The notes below the pieces were generated by a model. The model did not search any database, was not told where the DNA came from, and saw only the letters and a program-made list of their open reading frames with translations. The position numbers were made by a program, and so were the translations under genes. A DNA stretch of 64,000 bases from Clostridia bacterium (GTDB lineage: Bacteria; Bacillota; Clostridia; Christensenellales; UMGS416), in assembly GCA_030637745.1 (NCBI GenBank), contig DAOWFX010000127.1:237-64236 (forward strand), given 5' to 3'. Shown here piece after piece: positions 2,456 through 30,024 of the stretch. Within the stretch, counting starts at the first letter, position 1, and the number at the start of each line of letters is the position of its first letter.

Positions 2456-2794
2456 ATGAAAATAGCAATACCGGTAGCAGATGAAAAGCTTTGTTTGCAC
2501 TTTGGTCACTGTCAACAGTTTTATCTGTATGAAGTGGATGAAGAAGAAAAACAAATCCTAAGCACGACTAAGCTAACACCACCACCACACGAACCAGGAG
2601 TCCTGCCGAGGTGGCTCTCGCAAAATCAAGCAAACTTGATTATTGCAGGTGGCATGGGACAAAGCGCACAGCGATTATTTAAAGAAAATGGCATAAAAGT
2701 ATGGACTGGTGCACCGCTGGATTCACCAAAGACAATAGTGGAGAAATATCTCAAAGGAACCTTGGTTGCAGGGGATAATGCTTGCGATCATTAA
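2456..2794 (+). CDS. NifB/NifX/NafY-type FeMo-cofactor-binding-domain protein (COG1433, MTH1175-like)
   Basis: MKIAIPV..HFGHCQQF..IIAGGMGQSAQRLFKENGIKV is typical of this small domain. AAGGAG lies at 2443-2448, 7 nt before the ATG. Confidence 0.8.
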   Translation: MKIAIPVADEKLCLHFGHCQQFYLYEVDEEEKQILSTTKLTPPPHEPGVLPRWLSQNQANLIIAGGMGQSAQRLFKENGIKVWTGAPLDSPKTIVEKYLKGTLVAGDNACDH

Positions 2795-2815
2795 TAAATA
2801 ATAAGGAAACATAAT

Positions 2816-3640
2816 ATGAGTGAAAATTGTAATCAGGACTGTGGCGCATGCAGTCAAGAATGCGAAGATAGAAAAGAAAAAAACGAATTCGCGATTGATC
2901 TTCATGAATTAAGTAATGTCAAAAAAGTCATTGGGGTTGTTAGTGGTAAGGGTGGAGTTGGAAAATCATTAGTTACATCTTTGATGGCAGTTGCAATGAA
3001 TCGATGTGGATATAAGACAGCAATACTTGATGCAGATATCACAGGACCTTCTATCCCGAAAGCCTTTGGATTGAAGAAAAAAGCGATAAGTATTGATGGT
3101 GGATTGATTCCGGTAGCCAGTAAAACCGGTATTGAGATCATGTCGATAAACCTGTTGCTTGAAAATGATACAGATCCTGTTGTGTGGCGTGGTCCATTAA
3201 TTGCAGGGACAGTGAAGCAATTCTGGTCTGATGTGATTTGGAAAGATATCGACTATATGTTTGTAGACCTACCTCCGGGAACTGGTGATGTTGCACTCAC
3301 AGTGTTTCAATCCATACCCATTGAAGGAATCATTGTAGTAACATCTCCACAAGAGCTGGTATCAATGATTGTTGAAAAGGCTGCGATGATGGCGAATATG
3401 ATGAATGTTCCCATACTTGCATTGGTAGAGAATATGTCATATTATCAATGTCCCGATTGTGGCATACGCCATGATATATTTGGAACAAGTACTATTGAGG
3501 AAATTGCAGATAAGCATGATATTGATACATATTCCAAGATTCCTATAGATACAAAGATAGCGACTGCATGTGATAAGGGATTAATTGAATTACTAAATTT
3601 TGATTTCTTAGAAAATGTGGTTGATAAGATTGAAAAGTAA
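2816..3640 (+). CDS. Mrp/NBP35/ApbC-family Fe-S cluster carrier ATPase
   Basis: VIGVVSGKGGVGKS Walker A, DLPPGTGD, CPDCG motif, and a Cys-rich N-terminus (CNQDCGACSQEC). Confidence 0.9.
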   Translation: MSENCNQDCGACSQECEDRKEKNEFAIDLHELSNVKKVIGVVSGKGGVGKSLVTSLMAVAMNRCGYKTAILDADITGPSIPKAFGLKKKAISIDGGLIPVASKTGIEIMSINLLLENDTDPVVWRGPLIAGTVKQFWSDVIWKDIDYMFVDLPPGTGDVALTVFQSIPIEGIIVVTSPQELVSMIVEKAAMMANMMNVPILALVENMSYYQCPDCGIRHDIFGTSTIEEIADKHDIDTYSKIPIDTKIATACDKGLIELLNFDFLENVVDKIEK

Positions 3641-3659
3641 AATAGAATATTTTGATAGG

Positions 3660-3701
3660 TTTAGATAAAAGGAGGAATCACCCTCCTTTTGTTTTATCTA
3701 A
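3660..3701. terminator. Long hairpin, bidirectional intrinsic-terminator-like, after the mrp-like gene
   Basis: ttagataaaaGGAGG-aatcac-CCTCCttttgttttatctaa. GC core flanked by A/T runs on both sides. Confidence 0.7.
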
Positions 3702-3710
3702 ACAAATTCA

Positions 3711-3719
3711 TGATATAAT
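3711..3719 (+). promoter_or_regulatory. Extended -10 promoter (TGaTATAAT) 7 nt upstream of the ATG at 3726; possible leaderless mRNA
   Basis: tgatataat at 3711-3719. No Shine-Dalgarno sequence between it and the ATG at 3726. Confidence 0.35.
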
Positions 3720-3725
3720 ATCAAA

Positions 3726-4784
3726 ATGAATAAAGAAACACTATTTCAAAACCTCACCGAGACTCTTGAAAAACGGCAGGAGCAGTATGTTGTTTTTTCA
3801 GGCAACATATATACATTTGAATCTGCATTCAATGAAATACTTGCATTGCAAGAAGGTGCAAAGCTTGTAAAGTGGCTCAATGCACAAAGTGCGATTGTTT
3901 ATCTGCCGGATGGGATGAAAGCATTTTACCGAAATCTCAAGCAACATCCACCTATATATATTCAGCATATATTCCCGATACAATATGTTTTTGCAATTGA
4001 CAACTTTGATCTATTTGCAGAAAGTTTAGCAAGTCTATGTGGGGAGTTCACTGTTGGTAAAACTTTTTCTGTACAAACAACGATATTTAGCAGTGAAATA
4101 GAATTGAGCACATTTGATATCAATAAAAGGACATCAGACAGCATAGCAAGAAAAGGAAATACACTTGATACAAAAAATCCATATTACGTGATATCTATTG
4201 CAGTAGAAGGTGCATTCTTCTATGTTGGGATATCCACTGCGAAAGAAAACTTGAGTAAATGGACATGCGGCAAAGTGCATTATTCTAAAGAAATTAATAG
4301 GGCAGAATATAAGCTTGTAGAATGCATTGAGCACTTTGAGATAAATATCGAAGGGGAGAAGGCGTTAGATATTGGTGCAGCCCCCGGTGGATGGACCAAA
4401 GCACTATATGACAGAGGATATAAAGTGTGGGCGGTTGATCCTGCGATGCTACAATATGAGATATTAAATCATAAAAACGTGGTATACATGCAGATGACAG
4501 CACAAACATTCTTAAAAGACAATACAGAAGCATTTGATATTATCGTCAATGACATGATACTTGATTGCAGAGAGTCTGCCCGTATTATGAATGAAGCATC
4601 AAAACATCTGCATAGCGAAGGATGTGGAATATTCACAGCTAAACTGCCTAAGAAGGGATATAACAAGAGACTAAAGACAGCAATAAAAATATTAGAAAAA
4701 GAATATATAATTAGTGGAGTGCGCCAACTTCCGTCTAACAAGTCAGAAGTGACTATTGTGCTAAAGAGAAATATAATTAGATAA
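3726..4784 (+). CDS. RlmM/FtsJ-like SAM-dependent RNA 2'-O-methyltransferase with N-terminal THUMP-like region
   Basis: ALDIGAAPGGWTKALYDRGYKVWAVDPA matches the FtsJ/RlmM SAM-binding motif. DMILD lies downstream. Confidence 0.6.
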   Translation: MNKETLFQNLTETLEKRQEQYVVFSGNIYTFESAFNEILALQEGAKLVKWLNAQSAIVYLPDGMKAFYRNLKQHPPIYIQHIFPIQYVFAIDNFDLFAESLASLCGEFTVGKTFSVQTTIFSSEIELSTFDINKRTSDSIARKGNTLDTKNPYYVISIAVEGAFFYVGISTAKENLSKWTCGKVHYSKEINRAEYKLVECIEHFEINIEGEKALDIGAAPGGWTKALYDRGYKVWAVDPAMLQYEILNHKNVVYMQMTAQTFLKDNTEAFDIIVNDMILDCRESARIMNEASKHLHSEGCGIFTAKLPKKGYNKRLKTAIKILEKEYIISGVRQLPSNKSEVTIVLKRNIIR

Positions 4785-21422: not shown

Positions 21423-22430
21423 CTAGTTTTCTAAGCCTTTTCTGATACGCGGTGCAACATATGCAAATACCAGTGCTGCAATGCCGAGGACAATGGCACT
21501 ATGCCATAGAAGTTCAAGCCAAGTAAAGTCTCCATTTAATATCGATAGGTTGCCTTTGTATACCCAATAAAAAGGTGACCAGTACATTACCCACTGCCAT
21601 TTGGCTGATAAAAACTCGTATCCTGCAACAGAGGCTGCAAGCGGCAGCATAACCATCTTGGTGCTTGCAACTGCAGTCATTACATCATCGCTGTTCACAC
21701 CTTCTAGGAATCCGATCATGATACTGATAAGCGATGAGACGAATACGAAGATAAGTAGTTGTAGGAAGTTTACAGTGCCTGCAAGTCCCAATATCAAAAC
21801 CATGGCACTACACCCTATCAGTGCAACGAGTATGCCCATGATGCTTTTGCCGAATATCCAAGCTGTCCTTGAAATGGGTGCAACGTTGATTGCGCTAATG
21901 GTGTTGTCCATCTTCTCTTCTACGATATTGAGTGATATCAGCATGCCTGCAAGTAGACTGGTAAGGAGTATTCCCATGTTGGCCCAAAGGATCTTTGTAG
22001 GGGAAGTTTTTACTCCAAAGTCTTTGATTATCGCTGTTGAGTCTTCAACTTTTCTATCGTACTCTGAGTAAGTTTTTAACAGCTTTGCAAACATCACCAC
22101 ATCTTCAGGTTCATTTCCTTGAGTGAGGATATAAGCATCTTCACCTTCTCCGACAAAACCTACGATATTATCTCTTCTCAGTACTCTTTTTTCCAGTGAA
22201 TCGTAGTCTTTGACTTTGGTTATTTTTGCAAAGTCTTCAAGGTATGCGATAGTCTCCGTATTTTCGCCTTCGATAAAGACGAGATTTACTGTGGTATCTT
22301 CAATACCGGGCGCAAAGGCATTGACTGCGAATGCGAGTATTATCGGGATGACTATCATGAATAGCGACATGAAATCTCTATAGCTTACATGCAAGTCTCT
22401 CTTAAATATTGTTAACGTTTTTTTAAACAT
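21423..22430 (-). CDS. ABC-2 type transporter permease
   Basis: N-terminal TM, a large extracytoplasmic loop, then 5 C-terminal TM. Adjacent to a second permease and the ATPase. Confidence 0.75.
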   Translation of the reverse strand: MFKKTLTIFKRDLHVSYRDFMSLFMIVIPIILAFAVNAFAPGIEDTTVNLVFIEGENTETIAYLEDFAKITKVKDYDSLEKRVLRRDNIVGFVGEGEDAYILTQGNEPEDVVMFAKLLKTYSEYDRKVEDSTAIIKDFGVKTSPTKILWANMGILLTSLLAGMLISLNIVEEKMDNTISAINVAPISRTAWIFGKSIMGILVALIGCSAMVLILGLAGTVNFLQLLIFVFVSSLISIMIGFLEGVNSDDVMTAVASTKMVMLPLAASVAGYEFLSAKWQWVMYWSPFYWVYKGNLSILNGDFTWLELLWHSAIVLGIAALVFAYVAPRIRKGLEN

Positions 22431-22439
22431 GTAGACCTC

Positions 22440-23549
22440 CTAAACCGACAGCGTTTTTTTATAACGCGCGTTTGCCCAAGCAAACAGTATCGAGGACACG
22501 ACTAGATATCCCAGTGCAATCAACAGGATGAATCCGGTGTCGCCTTTGGTGAATATTTCTTTAAATCCATAAACGATGTAGTAACTTGGTATAAACTTTA
22601 ACCACATTGGATCCCAGCTTGCGATAAAGTAAGATAATGTTGGCATCATCATTGCAATCATAAGTAGATACATCACGCCGAATGACTTGACCATGTCATC
22701 AAAATAGCTGGCGATCAGTAGTCCCAATGCTGATGCGAAGAATCCTGTTGGTATCAAGAACACAATTAGCAATAGATAGTTGATTCTTGTGCCCATGATG
22801 GGCAATATCAATATTAGTGATGTAGTCAGCGCAGTGACGGTTAGAATCAACACCTTACTTAGGAGATATTTCCATACAGGAGAGGGGGTGATTGCGTATG
22901 CTTTGATAACGCCTTCTTTTTTGTCGAGGAATACATAGGCTGCCATGATGAAAAGTCCCATCAGTGAACCGTTAAATGTCAAGAACACCGGAAGAACATT
23001 TTCTCGGTCGCTGAGTACTACATAGTCCGTTGAAATGGTTTTCACCGGTTGACCTTCTAGCTCTTTGTATAGCAGTGCATCATCAGGTCCATGTATGATT
23101 TTTAATATATTACTAAACTTTTCAGTCTCATTGCCCTGTGTGTAGTAGGTATAGTTCAACTCATTTGCTTCATTCATCTTGATGGATACCCCGAGCTTAT
23201 GCTTCTTTTCTGCAACCTTGGCCATATCTTCTTCAGTGTCGAAAACATATATCTCCTTGTCTTCGGTGACATACAAAGTAGAGTTAATCTCTTCCTTGTC
23301 AATTTTAAATGGATCTTCGGGTGTTTTTCCTTTTCCATCTAAGTCATTAAATGATTCGATATACATTTGCTGGGACTGTGCATTTGGAAACTCTAAGTAC
23401 AAGTATTGAGTCTCTTTGTTATCAAAGTTGTTCGGAATAACAAATAGCAGTACAAATAGTAGTATTGCTGCCATTGCAATCTCTACATAGAAGTAAAAGC
23501 CCCTTGATGCAATCGTTAACTCTTTAACGAAACTTGACCATAACTTCAT
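22440..23549 (-). CDS. ABC-2 type transporter permease
   Basis: Same architecture as the neighbouring permease (TM1, about 170-aa loop, 5 TM). Confidence 0.75.
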   Translation of the reverse strand: MKLWSSFVKELTIASRGFYFYVEIAMAAILLFVLLFVIPNNFDNKETQYLYLEFPNAQSQQMYIESFNDLDGKGKTPEDPFKIDKEEINSTLYVTEDKEIYVFDTEEDMAKVAEKKHKLGVSIKMNEANELNYTYYTQGNETEKFSNILKIIHGPDDALLYKELEGQPVKTISTDYVVLSDRENVLPVFLTFNGSLMGLFIMAAYVFLDKKEGVIKAYAITPSPVWKYLLSKVLILTVTALTTSLILILPIMGTRINYLLLIVFLIPTGFFASALGLLIASYFDDMVKSFGVMYLLMIAMMMPTLSYFIASWDPMWLKFIPSYYIVYGFKEIFTKGDTGFILLIALGYLVVSSILFAWANARYKKTLSV

Positions 23550-23550
23550 A

Positions 23551-24405
23551 CTAAATCAGCTCCCTTCCAGTCACCTTGATAAAGATTTCCTCTAGGGTTG
23601 CCTCCTTGGTGTGCATTGTCTGGATATTTTGCTTTGCAATGATATCTGCAAGTTTTTTCTTGTCTTTTTCATCCAGCGTTGAGAAAGTCTCGGTTTTCAA
23701 TTTGCCGTTATCGCCATATTCCACTTCAACTTTGCTTTCACCATATTCAAGCTTTAAGTTTTTGGGACTATCAATGAGGTGTATGTCACCATCTATAATG
23801 AATGCGACGCGATCACATAATTCATCTGCAATGTACATGTTGTGGGTTGTTAGAAATACAGTGACGCCTTTTTCATTTTGCTCTTTTACAATGCCCTTGA
23901 TAACGGATGCAATCGCAGGGTCCAAGCCTGTTGTGGGTTCGTCCAAGAACCATAGTTCTGGGTTGTTTAGCATGCTTCGAGCAAAGGTTAGGCGATGCTT
24001 CATACCTTTTGAAAACTCTCCTGCACGGATCTTTCCCTTGCCTTCGAGTCCCACGATTTCCAGTAGTTCATCTGGATCACGTGTGGGAACATCAAATAGT
24101 TTTGCATAAAACTTGAGGTTTTCTTTTGCAGTCATTTTGCTATATACATTGGACTGCTCAAAAGACATGCCAATTTGGTTGAACATCTTTCTTTTGATTT
24201 CCTTAACATCATAGCCTGCAACCGTTACATTGCCTTTTTGCAACTGCAGAAGACCTGTTAAAATTCCTTGAGTGGTTGATTTGCCTGCGCCGGAGGGTCC
24301 AAGGAAACCAAAGACTTCACCTTTGGGAATCTCAAAGCTGACATCCTTCACAGCATAGTTGTCATCCTTGTTATAAGAATGATATAGATTTTGAACAGTA
24401 ATCAT
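23551..24405 (-). CDS. ABC transporter ATP-binding protein
   Basis: Walker A GPSGAGKST, signature FSKGMKHRL, Walker B WFLDEPTTGLD. Confidence 0.92.
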   Translation of the reverse strand: MITVQNLYHSYNKDDNYAVKDVSFEIPKGEVFGFLGPSGAGKSTTQGILTGLLQLQKGNVTVAGYDVKEIKRKMFNQIGMSFEQSNVYSKMTAKENLKFYAKLFDVPTRDPDELLEIVGLEGKGKIRAGEFSKGMKHRLTFARSMLNNPELWFLDEPTTGLDPAIASVIKGIVKEQNEKGVTVFLTTHNMYIADELCDRVAFIIDGDIHLIDSPKNLKLEYGESKVEVEYGDNGKLKTETFSTLDEKDKKKLADIIAKQNIQTMHTKEATLEEIFIKVTGRELI

Positions 24406-24482
24406 GGAATTGCTCCTCTCAAAACAAATATTTAAAATAATTTCTTATCGTGTGGTTGTTCGGTCGACTTTGTGCTGTGTTC

Positions 24483-25112
24483 TTACTTATAAAAGGTCTT
24501 TTTTAAAATACTAATATATTCATCCATATCATTTATTGCTTTTTCAAAATCCATATCCTGAATATCATCTAATGCAAGTATTTGTTCTTCACCATATTTT
24601 TCGATCGTCCAGCGAATTACATTGATAGATTGGGCTATTGTGCTTTGATCACGAAACTTTGAGTAATCAATATTTTTGGTAAACACATCGCCAATTACTG
24701 ATTGAAAATCAATTCCGTATTTTTCATATAGTTTTATACTATCTTCAAGTTTTTTCACATTATTTCTTGATATAACTTTGAGCATGAAGTCAAACATATT
24801 TGGATATACTTTGCTGATTTTCATTTTAATTATTGCAATCTGTTTTATTCTTTCAAATATATCAGATTCATGCCAATCGATTTTCTCTGTAATTTCATCA
24901 TACATTTTGTTTATAACAAATCCGACAAGCTTATCATATAAATCTTGTTTGCTTTTAAAATAATGAAACAGCAATCCTTTTGATATACCGGCAGACTTAA
25001 CAATGTTATTAGTTGATGCTTTTTCATAAGGATAGAGTGAAAACTCCTCGATTGCTGCGTTAATTATTCTGTCTTTTTTATCACTATCTATGTTTGCTAG
25101 GGTATAGTCCAT
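24483..25112 (-). CDS. TetR/AcrR-family transcriptional regulator
   Basis: N-terminal HTH: AAIEEFSLYPYEKASTNNIVKSAGISKGLLFHYFKSKQDLY. Confidence 0.9.
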   Translation of the reverse strand: MDYTLANIDSDKKDRIINAAIEEFSLYPYEKASTNNIVKSAGISKGLLFHYFKSKQDLYDKLVGFVINKMYDEITEKIDWHESDIFERIKQIAIIKMKISKVYPNMFDFMLKVISRNNVKKLEDSIKLYEKYGIDFQSVIGDVFTKNIDYSKFRDQSTIAQSINVIRWTIEKYGEEQILALDDIQDMDFEKAINDMDEYISILKKTFYK

Positions 25113-25144
25113 AATAATTTCCTCTCAGGATCATCTTTACAGCT

Positions 25145-25326
25145 GACCAATGTGGTTAATCGGTGTTTTTGCTTTTCAAAACACGTTATGGCTTGTGAGT
25201 TTCATGAAGATTATTTCATCACATTAATCATTCCAGACCAATGTGGTTAATCGGTGTTTTTGCTTTTCAAAACACGTTATGGCTTGTGAGTTTTGAAATA
25301 ATATTTCTCTCACATAATCAGTTACC
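25145..25326. repeat. Tandem direct repeat with 91-bp period: two units whose first 58 bp are identical
   Basis: gaccaatgtggttaatcggtgtttttgcttttcaaaacacgttatggcttgtgagttt occurs at 25145-25202 and 25236-25293. The unit tails are related (catcacattaatcattcca versus ctcacataatcagttacc). Confidence 0.9.
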
Positions 25327-25390
25327 GACCAACTCGGTCAATCTCATACTAGCATAGCAGACCAGTGTGGTCAATGACCAATGTGGTCAA
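25327..25390. promoter_or_regulatory. Cluster of three palindromic GACCA-N3-(T/C)GGTC motifs; candidate TetR operators
   Basis: gaccaactcggtcaa at 25327, gaccagtgtggtcaa at 25360 and gaccaatgtggtcaa at 25376. The last is the perfect inverted repeat TGACCA-atg-TGGTCA. The same 15-mer family heads each 91-bp unit. Confidence 0.4.
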
Positions 25391-25505
25391 ACTCAAACGT
25401 TTTGCTAAAAACCATCATGAAGCGTCCGAATGATGCAAATATTCCGCTGAAAGCAACAAATTTGTGGTTAAAGTGTCATTTGCTTATAGGAATGATTATA
25501 TTTTG

Positions 25506-25534
25506 TTGCAGCCAAGTAACACTGATGCTATAAT
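25506..25534 (+). promoter_or_regulatory. Candidate sigma-A promoter for the tyrS leader (TTGCAG-N17-TATAAT with TGn extension)
   Basis: ttgcag at 25506-25511; tgc-tataat at 25526-25534. Confidence 0.45.
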
Positions 25535-25560
25535 TGCCATATTATTTTGAAGGATACAAT

Positions 25561-25647
25561 ATGAAAAATAACACACTACAAACTTATAACACATCTCTTT
25601 ATTACGCATATTATTATAGTATGGGGGCTTTTACTGTTGTGAGTTAG
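25561..25647 (+). CDS. Candidate 28-codon Tyr-rich leader peptide (MKNNTLQTYNTSLYYAYYYSMGAFTVVS)
   Basis: GAAGGA lies 6 nt upstream of the ATG. Six of the 28 codons are Tyr, five of them within codons 14-19 (tat tac gca tat tat tat). It sits between a promoter-like element and a terminator hairpin directly upstream of tyrS. Confidence 0.5.
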   Translation: MKNNTLQTYNTSLYYAYYYSMGAFTVVS

Positions 25648-25666
25648 TTTAAAATTAACCAACTAT

Positions 25667-25701
25667 GGCTTGAGGCTCTTAAATGGCTTCAAGCCTTTTT
25701 T
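25667..25701 (+). terminator. Intrinsic terminator/attenuator 30 nt upstream of the tyrS start
   Basis: GGCTTGAGGCT-cttaaat-GGCTTCAAGCC, an 11-bp stem including G-U pairs, followed by T6. Confidence 0.7.
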
Positions 25702-25731
25702 ATTATCAAAAAATAAAAAAAGGAGGGTAAA

Positions 25732-26904
25732 ATGACTAAACAAAGTATCATCGAGACAATCAAGTGCGAGGCTGTAGGCATTTATTCTGAAGATGAATTT
25801 GACCTACTAATGGACTCGAGAAAAACATTGACCATCAAACTGGGTGCAGATCCGAGTCGACCGGATCTACATTTGGGACACTCTGTAATCCTTCGCAAGC
25901 TAAGACTCTTTCAAGAATTGGGACACCAAGTGGTGTTTGTCATCGGAGACTTTACCGGTATGATTGGAGATCCGACTGGGAAGTCGAGAACAAGACCTGC
26001 ACTAACACTTGAGGAGACTCGAGAGGCAGGGAAAACATATTTCCATCAGGTTACAAAGATACTGGATGCGAGTAAGACATCCATTCGGTATAATTCTGAG
26101 TGGCTTGATGAACTGAAATTCAAGGATGTAATACACCTTGCATCTCAATACACATTGGCTCGTATAATGGAGCGAGATGACTTTAAAACACGATTTGAGA
26201 GCAATCAACCTATTTCACTACATGAGTTATTTTATCCGTTGATGCAAGGGTATGACTCCATAGCACTCGATGCAGACATTGAAATTGGTGGAACAGATCA
26301 GACATTTAATATGCTGGTAGGTAGAACGCTACAAGTGCACTATGGTCAAAAGCAACAAGTAGTTATCACATATCCCATTATTGCAGGACTTGACGGAGTG
26401 GAGAAGATGAGTAAGTCGCTGGATAATTATATCGGCATTGATGAGCCTGCAGATAGCATGTTTGAAAAGTGTATGAAGATACCGGATACGATATTGAAGG
26501 ATTACTTTGTGTTGACTACTGATATCAAAGAAGTTAAAGCACAAGGGTTGATTGAAGAAGATATCAGAGAAGCGCACTTTGCATATGCTGAACGGATTGT
26601 TGCTATGTATCATGATGAGAATGCTGCAATCAATGCAAAACAAAGGTACATTGAAGTAGCAAAAGGGAGTGTTCCTCAAAATCTAAAGACAGTAGAAATC
26701 ACGCAAGAGAGCATATCGATTATTGAGCTAATCAAACTTGCAGGATTTGCATCATCTAACGGAGAGGCGAGGAGATGTATCCTCGGAAAGGGAATAAAGA
26801 TCGACCAGATAGTGATAGAAAATGCGAACCTTGTTGTGTGTGTTGAACAACCGATCGTATTGCAGTTTGGGAAAAATCGATTTGTAGAAATCAGGCAGAA
26901 ATAG
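25732..26904 (+). CDS. tyrS: Tyrosyl-tRNA synthetase
   Basis: HIGH-type motif PDLHLGH, KMSKS present, and a C-terminal S4-like domain (GFASSNGEARRCILGKGIKID). AAGGAGGG RBS. Confidence 0.88.
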   Translation: MTKQSIIETIKCEAVGIYSEDEFDLLMDSRKTLTIKLGADPSRPDLHLGHSVILRKLRLFQELGHQVVFVIGDFTGMIGDPTGKSRTRPALTLEETREAGKTYFHQVTKILDASKTSIRYNSEWLDELKFKDVIHLASQYTLARIMERDDFKTRFESNQPISLHELFYPLMQGYDSIALDADIEIGGTDQTFNMLVGRTLQVHYGQKQQVVITYPIIAGLDGVEKMSKSLDNYIGIDEPADSMFEKCMKIPDTILKDYFVLTTDIKEVKAQGLIEEDIREAHFAYAERIVAMYHDENAAINAKQRYIEVAKGSVPQNLKTVEITQESISIIELIKLAGFASSNGEARRCILGKGIKIDQIVIENANLVVCVEQPIVLQFGKNRFVEIRQK

Positions 26905-26964
26905 TTGGTGGCTCAAGATGAATAGTAGTGTATAATATGTAGGATATGAAGATAAGGAAGTTCT

Positions 26965-27831
26965 ATGATTGATTTATTGATTGCCATCGTGCTCAGTGCC
27001 ATCATTCCTAATTTGTTTAAATTGGCACAGAAAAAAGAATGCAGACAACCACCCATTATTACATTGAACTATTTGATGTGTGTAGTGATAGTCATTGCGA
27101 ACTTTTTTATCAGTAAATCACAAGGCGCGATATTTGGTGTAACTTTAACTGATGTGGAGATGAACAGCATCATATTATCTGCTGTAATCGGTGTCGTATG
27201 TGGTGTGTTTTACTATCTTGGATTTTATTTTTTCCAGAAAGCGGTACGACAAAGTGGAGCTGCACTATCTTCTGCATTTGGGAAGATGGGGATTCTCGTT
27301 CCGATAATACTGTCTGTTATCATATGGCGTGAATACCCAAAAGCACTTGCGGTAGTGGGCATATGCTTATCAGTATTTGCAATATTTTTCACATACTTTG
27401 ACTTCAAGTCATTTCGCTTTAATCAGATCCATGCGGTGCTGATAGTCCTGTTCTTGTTCGGTGGCATGGGCGACTTTTCTAATAAACTTTTTCAAAAGTA
27501 CTGCCTACAAAGCCATAGCATGATATTTTTATTCTTCATATTCGTATCAGCATTATTGGCGAGTTTGAAGGATATGAAAAGCATCAAGAATATTACAAAG
27601 AATGAATTCATTATTGGATTGTTCTTAGGTATCCCCAATATGCTGACTGCAACCTTCTTGATAAGAGCGTTATTTGCACTTCCTGCATTTATTGTATTTC
27701 CGATGTTCTCAGGTGCGACTATAATATTGGCGATGCTTCTAAGTGCTCTTTTCTACAAAGAAATTCCATCCAGAAAGCAACTGGTTGCGATTTGCATGAT
27801 TATTGTTGCGCTTGTGATGATCAACTTGTAA
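26965..27831 (+). CDS. Polytopic membrane protein (about 10 TM; possibly DMT/EamA-like)
   Basis: Hydrophobicity pattern only. Confidence 0.35.
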   Translation: MIDLLIAIVLSAIIPNLFKLAQKKECRQPPIITLNYLMCVVIVIANFFISKSQGAIFGVTLTDVEMNSIILSAVIGVVCGVFYYLGFYFFQKAVRQSGAALSSAFGKMGILVPIILSVIIWREYPKALAVVGICLSVFAIFFTYFDFKSFRFNQIHAVLIVLFLFGGMGDFSNKLFQKYCLQSHSMIFLFFIFVSALLASLKDMKSIKNITKNEFIIGLFLGIPNMLTATFLIRALFALPAFIVFPMFSGATIILAMLLSALFYKEIPSRKQLVAICMIIVALVMINL

Positions 27832-27892: not shown

Positions 27893-29353
27893 ATGAAGAA
27901 GATTGTATTATTGGTTGTTGTGATCATAGCGATTATTACATTTTCGCTTATTTCGTATGAAGTTAAAAATAATAATGAAGACATTTTACCTACAAACTCT
28001 GAAATTATTGAAAACACTTCGAGTCCTACAGTGCAAATCATTGAATCAACACCTACCACAGCACCCACACCCACTGAAATACCGATTGAATATGATATCA
28101 AATATATATTCTTGTTTATTGGCGATGGTATGGGATTTGACATCGTAGATGCTGCGAATGATATATTGATGCATAATGAGGATAGGCAGCTATGCTTTTT
28201 AGACTTTGAAAGCAAAGGAGAGGTCATTACAACCTTGGAAAGTGGTGCTGCAACTGATTCGGGTGCAGCTGCAACCAGTTTGGCAACGGGTGTCAATACC
28301 TATGATGGTGCAATTGGCGTAGATAGCAATGGGAAATCAGTTGAAAACCTCATAGAATATATTGCAGCCCGAAACTTAAAAACAGGGGTAATCTCTACTG
28401 TTACCATTGACCATGCAACACCAGCAGGCTTTTATGCACATCAAAAAAATCGGAGCATGTACGATGAAATCATCAAAGATGCAATAGCCAGTCCGTTGAA
28501 TGTGCTTGCAGGTGGATATACGAGCGCAGGAGTTAGCAAAACAACGATGCGAAAATGGGCGAAGGGTACGGGATTTGAAATATCTAGCGTAGGCAGTGGG
28601 GATGAATTTTCTGCAGATAAAGGAATTTATTTGGCGGATATCCCATTTGTCAATGATAATGACGGTTCGCAATCGACACTTACAAGCCTGCTCACCCATA
28701 CTGTTGAAAACCTATATAGTGATAGTGGTTTCTTCATCATGGCAGAAGCCGGAAAAATCGACTGGGCGATGCATAATTGGAGTTGGGCTGATGGTGTGAG
28801 TGAATTGCTGGATATGGAAGAGGCAATCTCTTATGCTGTTGACTTTTATGATGAACACCCAGATGAGACGATGATTATCATCACTGCAGACCATGAGACC
28901 GGAGGGTTCATATACGATGGGCAATCCAATCATGAACAATTTAATGCAATAGATACATCGTACAGTCGCTTGAATAGTTACATCAAGTCTGCAAAGAAAA
29001 AAGGATTGAGCACGGGATATGTGAATTTGAAAGAATATCTCATTGGGAGATTTGGTTTTGACTATGCAGATGGCACACAAAATGCAACCTGGGTATCAAG
29101 TACCAATTCTAATCGGATATATGATGCATTTAAAGATTATTGTTATAATCGAACATCATCATCGGATGTGATGGATATAATCTTTGATGTTATAAACTCT
29201 ATCGCAGGAGAGCGATTTACCACAACTGTGCACTCCAAGAAGAATGTTCCTGTATATGCATTGGGCAGATATGCAAAGATATTTGAAGGCGTATATGACA
29301 ATACCATGATCTATCATAAAATTAAAAATATCATCGATATCTATTATCCCTAA
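27893..29353 (+). CDS. Alkaline phosphatase family protein, membrane-anchored
   Basis: FIGDGMG, active-site region ATDSGAAATSLATG, ADHETGG. N-terminal TM plus a Pro/Thr linker. Confidence 0.85.
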   Translation: MKKIVLLVVVIIAIITFSLISYEVKNNNEDILPTNSEIIENTSSPTVQIIESTPTTAPTPTEIPIEYDIKYIFLFIGDGMGFDIVDAANDILMHNEDRQLCFLDFESKGEVITTLESGAATDSGAAATSLATGVNTYDGAIGVDSNGKSVENLIEYIAARNLKTGVISTVTIDHATPAGFYAHQKNRSMYDEIIKDAIASPLNVLAGGYTSAGVSKTTMRKWAKGTGFEISSVGSGDEFSADKGIYLADIPFVNDNDGSQSTLTSLLTHTVENLYSDSGFFIMAEAGKIDWAMHNWSWADGVSELLDMEEAISYAVDFYDEHPDETMIIITADHETGGFIYDGQSNHEQFNAIDTSYSRLNSYIKSAKKKGLSTGYVNLKEYLIGRFGFDYADGTQNATWVSSTNSNRIYDAFKDYCYNRTSSSDVMDIIFDVINSIAGERFTTTVHSKKNVPVYALGRYAKIFEGVYDNTMIYHKIKNIIDIYYP

Positions 29354-29412: not shown

Positions 29413-30024
29413 TTATTCTTCTGTATCACGGATCATTCTTCCGCGACCGCCTTTACCGCCCTTGTCACCTCTGCGTGGAAGGTCTTCTCTATCGATAAAG
29501 TCGTCGATGTGTGCATCACCTGCTGTGATACTGTCTGCTTGTTCTTGTGTAAGCATTCCGTCTTCAACTAGCTTTGCAAGCAATTCTTCGGGCATCCCTT
29601 CGCCATGCATTCCACGACCACCTTCAGGTCTTAGACCTTCTAAGTCTTCTTTATCGATGAAGTCACTGATGTGTGCATCGCCTGCTGCGATTGAATCTGC
29701 TTGTTCTTGTGTGAGTAGTCCGTCTTCAACGAGCTTTGCAAGTAATTCTTCGGGCATTCCTTCGCCGTGCATTCCACGACCGCCTTCAGGTCTCATTTCA
29801 TCTAATGTATCACAGTCGATGAAGTCATCGATATGCGCATCACCTGCTGTGATACTATCTGCTTGTTCTTGTGTGAGTAGTCCATCTTCAACTAAGTCTG
29901 TAATTCTTTCTTCGTGACGTCTGAAACCGCGCCATTCTCCTTGGTCATCTGCAAAAGCTATTGTTGTTCCAACCGCAATGGTTAATAGGACAGCTACTAC
30001 GATAATCCATAATTTCTTTTTCAT
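29413..30024 (-). CDS. Secreted protein with three 54-aa tandem repeats, each carrying an LTxxQ motif and a Gly/His/Met-rich segment
   Basis: Signal peptide MKKKLWIIVVAVLLTIAVGTTIAFA. Repeat unit LVEDGLLTQEQADSI(T/A)AGDAHI(D/S)DFID..RPEGGRGMHGEGMPEELLAK. Confidence 0.7.
   Translation of the reverse strand: MKKKLWIIVVAVLLTIAVGTTIAFADDQGEWRGFRRHEERITDLVEDGLLTQEQADSITAGDAHIDDFIDCDTLDEMRPEGGRGMHGEGMPEELLAKLVEDGLLTQEQADSIAAGDAHISDFIDKEDLEGLRPEGGRGMHGEGMPEELLAKLVEDGMLTQEQADSITAGDAHIDDFIDREDLPRRGDKGGKGGRGRMIRDTEE
29478..29905. repeat. 162-bp-period tandem DNA repeat (about 2.7 units) inside the secreted-protein gene
   Basis: Anchor cc(g/a)tcttcaac recurs at 29558, 29720 and 29882. Confidence 0.85.

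Follow-up and report, generated by a model that had tools for sequence, protein, structure and literature searches.

The RNA leader of tyrS, the tyrosine--tRNA ligase gene, in a stretch of 64,000 nucleotides from a Clostridia bacterium (contig DAOWFX010000127.1; the whole stretch is called the window, and positions are counted along it) is most likely a ribosome-mediated leader-peptide attenuator of the classical type. On the basis of sequence comparisons and computed RNA folds, we predict that it senses charged tRNA-Tyr and controls tyrS. An initial annotation, made from the letters of the window, had proposed ribosome-mediated attenuation of this gene. Comparative data support that proposal, and none of the contrary observations that we looked for was made. 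We conclude from the sequences of relatives that, for one group of TyrS proteins from uncultured Clostridia, an attenuator with a GGGCUUU-type core has apparently replaced the Tyr T-box as the control element of tyrS.

The leader transcript is predicted to start from a sigma-70-type promoter on the + strand (25506-25534), which consists of the -35-like element TTGCAG (25506-25511), a 17-nt spacer and an extended -10 element, TGcTATAAT (25526-25534). A consensus promoter scan has no entry for this site, because its -35 element matches at three of six positions only. The promoter lies 5' of a short open reading frame (ORF), as expected for a leader, and relatives carry TTGACA-N17-TATAAT-like promoters at the equivalent position. 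Transcription from it would yield a 5' untranslated region of 26 nt that contains the Shine-Dalgarno sequence GAAGGA (25549-25554), located 6 nt 5' of an ATG at 25561. The ORF (25561-25647, + strand) comprises 28 codons plus a stop codon and encodes MKNNTLQTYNTSLYYAYYYSMGAFTVVS. Tyr accounts for six of its codons, and for five of the six codons 14-19 (UAU UAC GCA UAU UAU UAU, 25600-25617), which form the proposed site of ribosome stalling. When the 619-nt intergenic region was shuffled, at least five Tyr codons within a stop-free window of six codons arose in 4 of 5000 shuffles (p about 8e-4); the cluster is not an artefact of composition.

An intrinsic terminator, the putative attenuator, occupies 25667-25701 on the + strand. 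Its hairpin (25667-25695; 11 pairs, -16.5 kcal/mol) begins 19 nt after the leader stop codon and is followed by T6 (25696-25701), from which 30 nt remain to the tyrS ATG at 25732. The -10 element, the Shine-Dalgarno sequence, the Tyr-rich ORF and the hairpin with its T-run are thus all present as they had been described initially. The regulated gene (25732-26904, + strand) has its own Shine-Dalgarno sequence, AGGAGGG (25721-25727), and codes for a tyrosine--tRNA ligase of 390 amino acids (PF00579, 232 bits; TIGR00234, 331 bits). The leader terminator is the sole terminator-like site on the + strand in 24400-27100. A scan of the 64 kb for a terminator before a gene together with a small ORF containing an amino-acid run returned the tyrS site only, and no second attenuator.

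Aminoacyl-tRNA synthetase genes of Firmicutes are the textbook domain of T-boxes. At Rfam gathering thresholds, the whole window has no match to any family (no tRNA, rRNA or riboswitch). For T-boxes this result is misleading alone, because genuine Tyr T-boxes of these AT-rich Clostridia score under the 93 bits that Rfam 15 sets as the gathering score of the T-box family (RF00230): T-boxes 5' of the tyrS homologues L003, L004, L009 and L011, used as positive controls, score 65-89 bits (E 1e-12 to 1e-18). We therefore judged the absence of T-boxes in E-value mode against these controls, and also with our own nhmmer profile, which was trained on the control T-boxes and detects 70 T-boxes among 158 upstream regions. 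In 25000-25900, RF00230 gave no match even at E<=10, and Rfam in E-value mode gave no T-box match in the leader-bearing relatives L001, L002, L005, L070 and L071. The nhmmer profile (even at E<=10) and a motif search found nothing in 18 leader loci (L166 left out). The window leader has neither a T-box sequence with the antiterminator bulge nor a Stem I with a specifier loop, so the initial remark that no T-box is present holds under all of these searches. Curated Rfam leader families (Trp, His, Leu, Thr, Phe and others) likewise gave no match in 25000-25900 at E<=10. The best Rfam match of the region is the trpB motif, with 23.4 bits versus a gathering score of 59, and is essentially an alignment of the terminator only.

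The same arrangement recurs in relatives. No TyrS relative of more than 70% identity was found in GTDB representatives, JGI metagenomes or a set of 5.8 billion proteins. At 55-70% identity, the upstream regions split: many carry a T-box, and a distinct set carries a Tyr-codon leader plus terminator without one. In 18 further distinct loci, all from uncultured Clostridia, a small ORF with a Tyr cluster and a terminator lie directly 5' of the orthologous tyrS, free of a T-box, which bears out the expectation that the ORF and its Tyr run would be conserved. This count leaves out duplicates (L163, equal to L162; L083, equal to L005; and L165, equal to the window, with 0 differences in 468 upstream positions). 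The arrangement is found in all seven of the nearest TyrS relatives whose contigs were fetched. In a neighbor-joining tree of TyrS, the leader loci group together and adjoin T-box lineages; five loci inside the leader cluster (L085, L086, L088, L092 and L012) have neither a leader nor a T-box.

Most leaders can be assigned to one of three subtypes. Subtype C, to which the window belongs, includes L161 (MKNMIATTSYINYEKESVYYYYDIVALVDVS), L162 (MITNITNCAYYAPEYYMVRAFGDV), L164 (as L162, with Met to Thr at residue 17 and Asp to Val at residue 23), L166 (MNKNIAKKAYYYAGYYYDIRAFRDV), L168 (MNKNTAAKAYYYAGYYYVIRAFRDV), L169 (MNISIAAKSYYVAGYYCNTRAFCDV) and L071 (ending in SAYYYKKGAYFSMH). All of these except L071 are homologous to the window's ORF and share with it the pattern YY(Y)A..YY(Y)..(G/R)AF..V(S), followed by the stop codon. 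Subtype A comprises L001 and L002, whose peptides contain STAAYYYYYSKS, and subtype B comprises L005, L070, L082, L084, L089, L025 and L081, with SVSYYYGNRLW in common. Two leaders, L117 and L167, fit none of the subtypes cleanly. Each leader has its own promoter and a start codon with either a Shine-Dalgarno sequence (6-8 nt) or the geometry of a leaderless mRNA. The leader stop codon is located 7-35 nt 5' of the terminator in every locus, the relatives' terminators have energies of -14 to -27.5 kcal/mol, and the terminator ends 24-60 nt 5' of tyrS, except in L161 and L166, where DNA has been inserted.

These comparisons bear on the question of whether the ORF could be an independent small gene, coding for a Tyr-rich micro-protein or a small RNA, that lies before tyrS by chance while tyrS is transcribed from a promoter of its own. 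Small ORFs are common and attenuator leader peptides can act in trans (PMC7298713), yet the link to tyrS is constant in the 18 further loci despite differing flanking genes. The peptide is also not conserved between subtypes apart from the Tyr run and the residues encoded by the antiterminator strand, and that strand co-varies with the terminator arm (see below). A weak promoter could hide in the AT-rich spacer 25696-25731; against this, only 30 nt separate the T-run from the tyrS ATG, mostly taken up by the Shine-Dalgarno region, and the promoter scan lists no site there. We regard an independent small gene as improbable.

The codon content of the leaders points to tyrosine as the signal. In the pooled leaders, no residue is as common as Tyr (18.9%, versus 3.5% in TyrS proteins), clusters have two to six Tyr codons, and the runs contain 65 UAU and 20 UAC. 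In 18 of the 19 distinct leaders, the Tyr triplets share the frame of a start codon of Shine-Dalgarno or leaderless type, with no intervening stop. One of the leaders that fits no subtype, L167, precedes an operon in which serS follows tyrS (leader 1277-1372, tyrS 1501-2727, serS 2720-3985, with an 8-nt overlap of the two genes). Both Ser and Tyr codons are abundant in the ORF of its peptide, MRRFNTTSSYSSYSYSSVSSYRNGLSLYMRK (stretch SSYSSYSYSSVSSY), which suggests an attenuator of dual specificity. A Ser+Tyr leader before tyrS-serS is predicted by ribosomal codon reading and is otherwise hard to explain.

A translated leader might control termination and yet report general translation capacity, or a slowing of ribosomes, rather than tyrosine. 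Known ribosome-mediated attenuators of Firmicutes do sense antibiotic-induced stalling (PMC4191407, PMC6851288). Nevertheless, no residue but Tyr is enriched throughout the leaders, tyrS is in every case the regulated gene, and the codon mix shifts to Ser plus Tyr once serS joins the operon. We therefore give a general translation signal very little weight.

The initial annotation had put forward pairing of UGGGGGCUUU (25622-25631) with GAGGCUCUUA (25672-25681) as a possible antiterminator. In our folds this pairing is real and forms the outer helix of an extended, imperfect hairpin on the + strand (25622-25681), whose inner helices include 25643-25649 with 25653-25659. The hairpin is predicted at -15.8 kcal/mol versus -16.5 kcal/mol for the terminator. 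Of the 11 nucleotides that the terminator 5' arm contributes to its stem, it takes up 8, so that the two folds are mutually exclusive. We folded the window leader in silico, state by state, with a 28-nt mask representing the ribosome. With the modelled A site on the Tyr codon at 25600, 25603 or 25609, the full antiterminator forms and the 8 stem nucleotides are sequestered; with the A site at 25612, the antiterminator is slightly shortened, and at 25615 it is largely masked. A modelled ribosome at the stop codon (25645) blocks it. For the complete leader at equilibrium, the terminator wins, and a long-range pairing of 25582-25593 with 25636-25646 is present. This minimum free energy fold thus includes weak anti-antiterminator elements (25582-25646, + strand). 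The candidate 1:2 elements of the window are a hairpin at 25605-25625 (-4.1 kcal/mol) and the long-range pairing (-12.4 kcal/mol over 25582-25649).

Corresponding alternatives are found across the family. Just 3' of the Tyr run, all subtypes have a strand of GGGCUUU type (GAGCUUU in subtype A, GGC(C/U)UU in subtype B), and the 5' arm of the terminator carries its complement (GAAGCC, GAGGCU, AAGCUC, CAAGGC and similar). We folded nascent RNAs over the segment between the leading edge of a ribosome that has stalled at the clustered Tyr codons and the terminator loop. An extended antiterminator that joins the strand to the terminator 5' arm was obtained in 17 of the 18 leaders folded, at -13 to -38 kcal/mol and with z of -0.9 to -4.9 relative to dinucleotide shuffles; the sole exception was L071, in which the ribosome mask was misplaced. 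Most relatives also have a hairpin, much stronger than that of the window, around the Tyr codons; its 3' arm overlaps the antiterminator strand, and in these models it has the properties of the classical 1:2 element. In subtype B, for example, a conserved hairpin of 10-12 bp holds the Tyr codons in its apical loop, as in CCAGUCUGUUUC[UUAUUAUUAC]GGAAACAGGCUUUGG; on alignment A2, this hairpin is 93% paired.

The antiterminator strand and the terminator arm co-vary. Among 14 non-redundant loci, duplexes of cognate strand and arm average -14.6 kcal/mol versus -11.2 kcal/mol for non-cognate combinations, and none of 20,000 permutations was as good (permutation p<5e-5). Exchanges of G-C for A-U between strand and arm, for example, distinguish subtype C from subtype A, and L082 from L025. 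We used this comparison because formal covariation is of little use here. In the antiterminator, pairing extends to 88.9% of cells on alignment A1, versus 29-47% when the strands are slid, and one pair has changed on both sides; for the terminator, the figures are 100% and two pairs. Over both alignments, A1 and A2, the paired share of the helices is 89-100%, versus 17-60% slid, and the helices are nearly invariant. MAFFT left the subtype-B terminators out of register.

The display of Tyr codons in a loop raises the question of whether a ribosome is needed at all. The UAU and UAC triplets might be read by the anticodon of tRNA-Tyr, or the leader might be bound by TyrRS or another protein. The loops of subtype B fit such a switch, yet the two to six Tyr codons per cluster are a multiplicity that is typical of leader peptides and unneeded for anticodon pairing. 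The element sits in the position of a T-box, yet the T-box signature was not found; UGGU in some antiterminator strands could pair with ACCA, yet UGGN is not conserved, and L168 and the window have no usable UGGN. In addition, the in-frame start codons, the position of the stop codon shortly 5' of the terminator and the Ser+Tyr leader of the tyrS-serS operon fit reading by a ribosome. A ribosome-independent switch is accordingly about as improbable, in our assessment, as an independent small gene. The narrower variant, in which the anticodon of tRNA-Tyr, or TyrRS, replaces or joins the ribosome as the reader of loop-displayed UAU/UAC, has if anything a slightly smaller chance of being correct. 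If true, it would mean a tRNA sensor independent of the T-box, or a still extant intermediate on the way from a T-box Stem I to a leader-peptide attenuator; the conserved small ORF that T-box-bearing relatives have before tyrS (see below) could then be part of this transition as well.

We thus favor attenuation by a translating ribosome, which would operate as follows. Transcription would begin at the promoter 25506-25534, and the 28-codon leader would then be translated. When Tyr-tRNA-Tyr is plentiful, the ribosome would reach the stop codon at 25645 and cover or sterically block the antiterminator strand; the terminator 25667-25695 plus U6 would then form, and most transcripts would stop before tyrS. 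When Tyr-tRNA-Tyr is scarce, the ribosome would stall in the Tyr cluster (25600-25617). UGGGGGCUUU, situated just beyond its leading edge, could then pair with the 5' arm of the terminator, and the resulting hairpin (25622-25681) would preclude the terminator and allow RNA polymerase to continue into tyrS.

Several observations weigh against this mechanism. In the window, five of the ten pairs of the outer antiterminator helix are G-U, and the antiterminator hairpin barely beats shuffled sequences (z -1.5 to -1.7). The simple two-strand duplex (-12.7 kcal/mol, equaled by 4% of shuffles) is unconvincing alone, and the argument is carried by the extended hairpin and the family context. The initial annotation had called the antiterminator weak. 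That description is apt as regards its G-U content and its margin over shuffles; it does not do justice to the longer hairpin, which nearly equals the terminator in energy, or to the counterparts in relatives, which are much stronger. The 1:2 element is so weak that a nascent-RNA model of the window forms the antiterminator without a ribosome as well. As a consequence, basal read-through could be high, and termination would hinge on the ribosome getting to the stop codon.

Further difficulties come from the family and from general considerations. Formal covariation is sparse (one double-changed pair in the antiterminator and none in the Tyr-loop hairpin of subtype B), because the helices are conserved. 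In L071 (2815-2906), the run UAU UAU UAU is out of frame with a GTG that has a strong Shine-Dalgarno sequence, GAGGAGG; the GTG frame reads ...RLLL before its stop codon, and the frame of the Tyr run has only a TTG without a Shine-Dalgarno sequence. The mismatch could come from an indel in the assembly, from decay of the leader or from use of a different start. Finally, transcription and translation in Bacillus subtilis are reported to be functionally uncoupled, which in principle disfavors such a mechanism in Firmicutes. However, antibiotic-sensing, ribosome-mediated transcription attenuators do function in B. subtilis (PMC4191407, PMC6851288).

A covariance model built from a seed of six subtype-C leaders was used to search the window plus 169 loci (about 945 kb, both strands). 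On the sense strand, all matches at E<=0.5 are upstream of tyrS, and the sole match elsewhere, in L123, is marginal (E 0.8). The other matches with E<=0.5 are to the terminator as it appears on the antisense strand. The model matched leaders outside the seed, those of subtype A, subtype B and L117, at E 3e-4 to 0.5. It also recovered the leader of L166 (99.7 bits), which lies about 450 nt upstream of tyrS and had earlier seemed to be missing.

Additional features were observed in relatives. In L161, an imperfect inverted repeat of about 165 nt (2835-2995; fold z = -5.9) follows the old Shine-Dalgarno sequence and resembles a miniature inverted-repeat transposable element, and in L166 about 440 nt of hairpin-rich DNA (1055-1500) separate the leader terminator from tyrS. 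Neither insertion has a credible Rfam match. Six leaders have start codons of leaderless type (L161 2653, L162 2219, L164 770, L166 923, L168 1339, L169 1340), with the ATG exactly 7 nt past the -10 element in the arrangement TTGACA-N17-TAnnnT-N7-ATG. Given this geometry and the lack of a Shine-Dalgarno sequence, these leaders are probably translated from leaderless mRNAs.

Many of the T-box-bearing tyrS relatives have a conserved small ORF of a different kind, located between the T-box terminator and tyrS (in L011, at about 2890-2990). It is also present in L015, L019, L026, L027, L031, L032, L035, L037, L043, L045, L048, L050, L058, L060, L062, L065, L075, L110, L118, L150-L156 and others. 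The ORF has a strong Shine-Dalgarno sequence, GGAGGTGAT, and the consensus MTQWFxMKxIIQGFFY..., often with further Tyr codons after the consensus, and its stop codon at times abuts the tyrS ATG. Where checked (L011), it has no Rfam match. It could represent a micro-protein, a second, translational layer of control, or an intermediate between a T-box and a leader peptide.

The window itself is chromosomal (plsX, smc, ftsY, ffh, formate-THF ligase and others; GC 38.6%). Downstream of tyrS, after 60 nt with no terminator-like site, is a gene for an EamA/DMT-family transporter (26965-27831), which may be co-transcribed with tyrS and so share its Tyr-dependent control. An alkaline-phosphatase-like gene follows (27893-29353), an arrangement also seen in L165. 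The - strand at 29413-30024 codes for a 203-amino-acid protein with DUF2680 (PF10925, E 6e-13), in which three near-identical repeats of about 45 residues each (...EELLAKLVEDGLLTQEQADSI.AGDAHI.DFID.EDL...) are found. Divergent from the leader, on the - strand, a TetR-family gene (24483-25112) heads an ABC-transporter operon (21423-24405). The intergenic region 25145-25390 contains two tandem 91-nt repeats (25145-25326) that are 80% identical, and five copies of a palindromic box, GACCAATGTGGTYAA, at 25145, 25236, 25327, 25360 and 25376. The array probably provides the operators of the TetR regulator.

Known leader-peptide attenuators respond to Trp, His, Phe, Leu, Thr, Ile/Val, Cys and Met. 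Neither a Tyr-codon leader peptide nor leader-peptide control of tyrS was found in Rfam 15 or in the searchable literature. What is new here is the amino-acid specificity, the target gene and the lineage; the mechanism itself is already well known. If the attenuator operates as proposed, ribosomes and RNA polymerase must be adequately synchronized in these Clostridia, which bears on the debate about uncoupling in Firmicutes. Leader peptide is the appropriate annotation for these small ORFs, and an Rfam family could be started from the covariance model. The family also provides probable leaderless sensing ORFs and an apparent dual Ser+Tyr leader.

The closest functional analogue is pheST of Escherichia coli, with its leader pheM. 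In both cases, a synthetase gene or operon lies behind a short ORF rich in cognate codons, antiterminator and terminator are alternatives, and a ribosome senses (in our case, presumably) the charging of a tRNA. However, pheST responds to Phe and belongs to a gammaproteobacterium, and the two leaders are not similar in sequence (at E<=10, none of the Rfam leader families is matched).

Among Gram-positive bacteria, Seliverstov et al. (2005) predicted classical attenuators at trpS and leuS of Streptomyces, and noted that at that time classical attenuation was known for no aminoacyl-tRNA synthetase of Firmicutes (PMC1262725). Naville and Gautheret (2010) described a His leader 5' of a hisS paralogue and hisZ in bacilli, which they present as a case of leader peptides taking the place of T-boxes in Firmicutes (PMC2965389). 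The idea that Firmicutes synthetase genes are never regulated by leader peptides is therefore not strictly true. His-leader attenuators of his operons are present in several Firmicutes lineages (PMC9413887). Like the bacillar hisS-paralogue and Streptomyces cases, the tyrS leader is a predicted leader-peptide attenuator at a synthetase gene of a Gram-positive organism. Those leaders respond to His, Trp or Leu, and the gene in Bacillus is a duplicated paralogue, whereas the tyrS leader would sense Tyr, comes from uncultured Clostridia and is common to a whole group of related TyrS sequences.

The leaderless polycysteine attenuators of mycobacteria, which respond to Cys (bioRxiv 10.1101/834739), are similar in that the sensing ORFs of L161, L162-164, L166, L168 and L169 are also probably leaderless. 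In contrast, the window leader has a 5' untranslated region with a Shine-Dalgarno sequence, and the amino acid, phylum and downstream genes differ.

The comparison with the Tyr T-box of tyrS (B. subtilis type, RF00230) is the most direct, because gene, position, terminator/antiterminator output and the signal, tRNA-Tyr charging, correspond. The window leader differs from it in having no Stem I, specifier loop or T-box sequence, and the proposed sensor is a translating ribosome rather than an RNA that binds tRNA. Since related TyrS lineages carry either a T-box or a leader, the swap of one sensing system for the other is open to side-by-side study.

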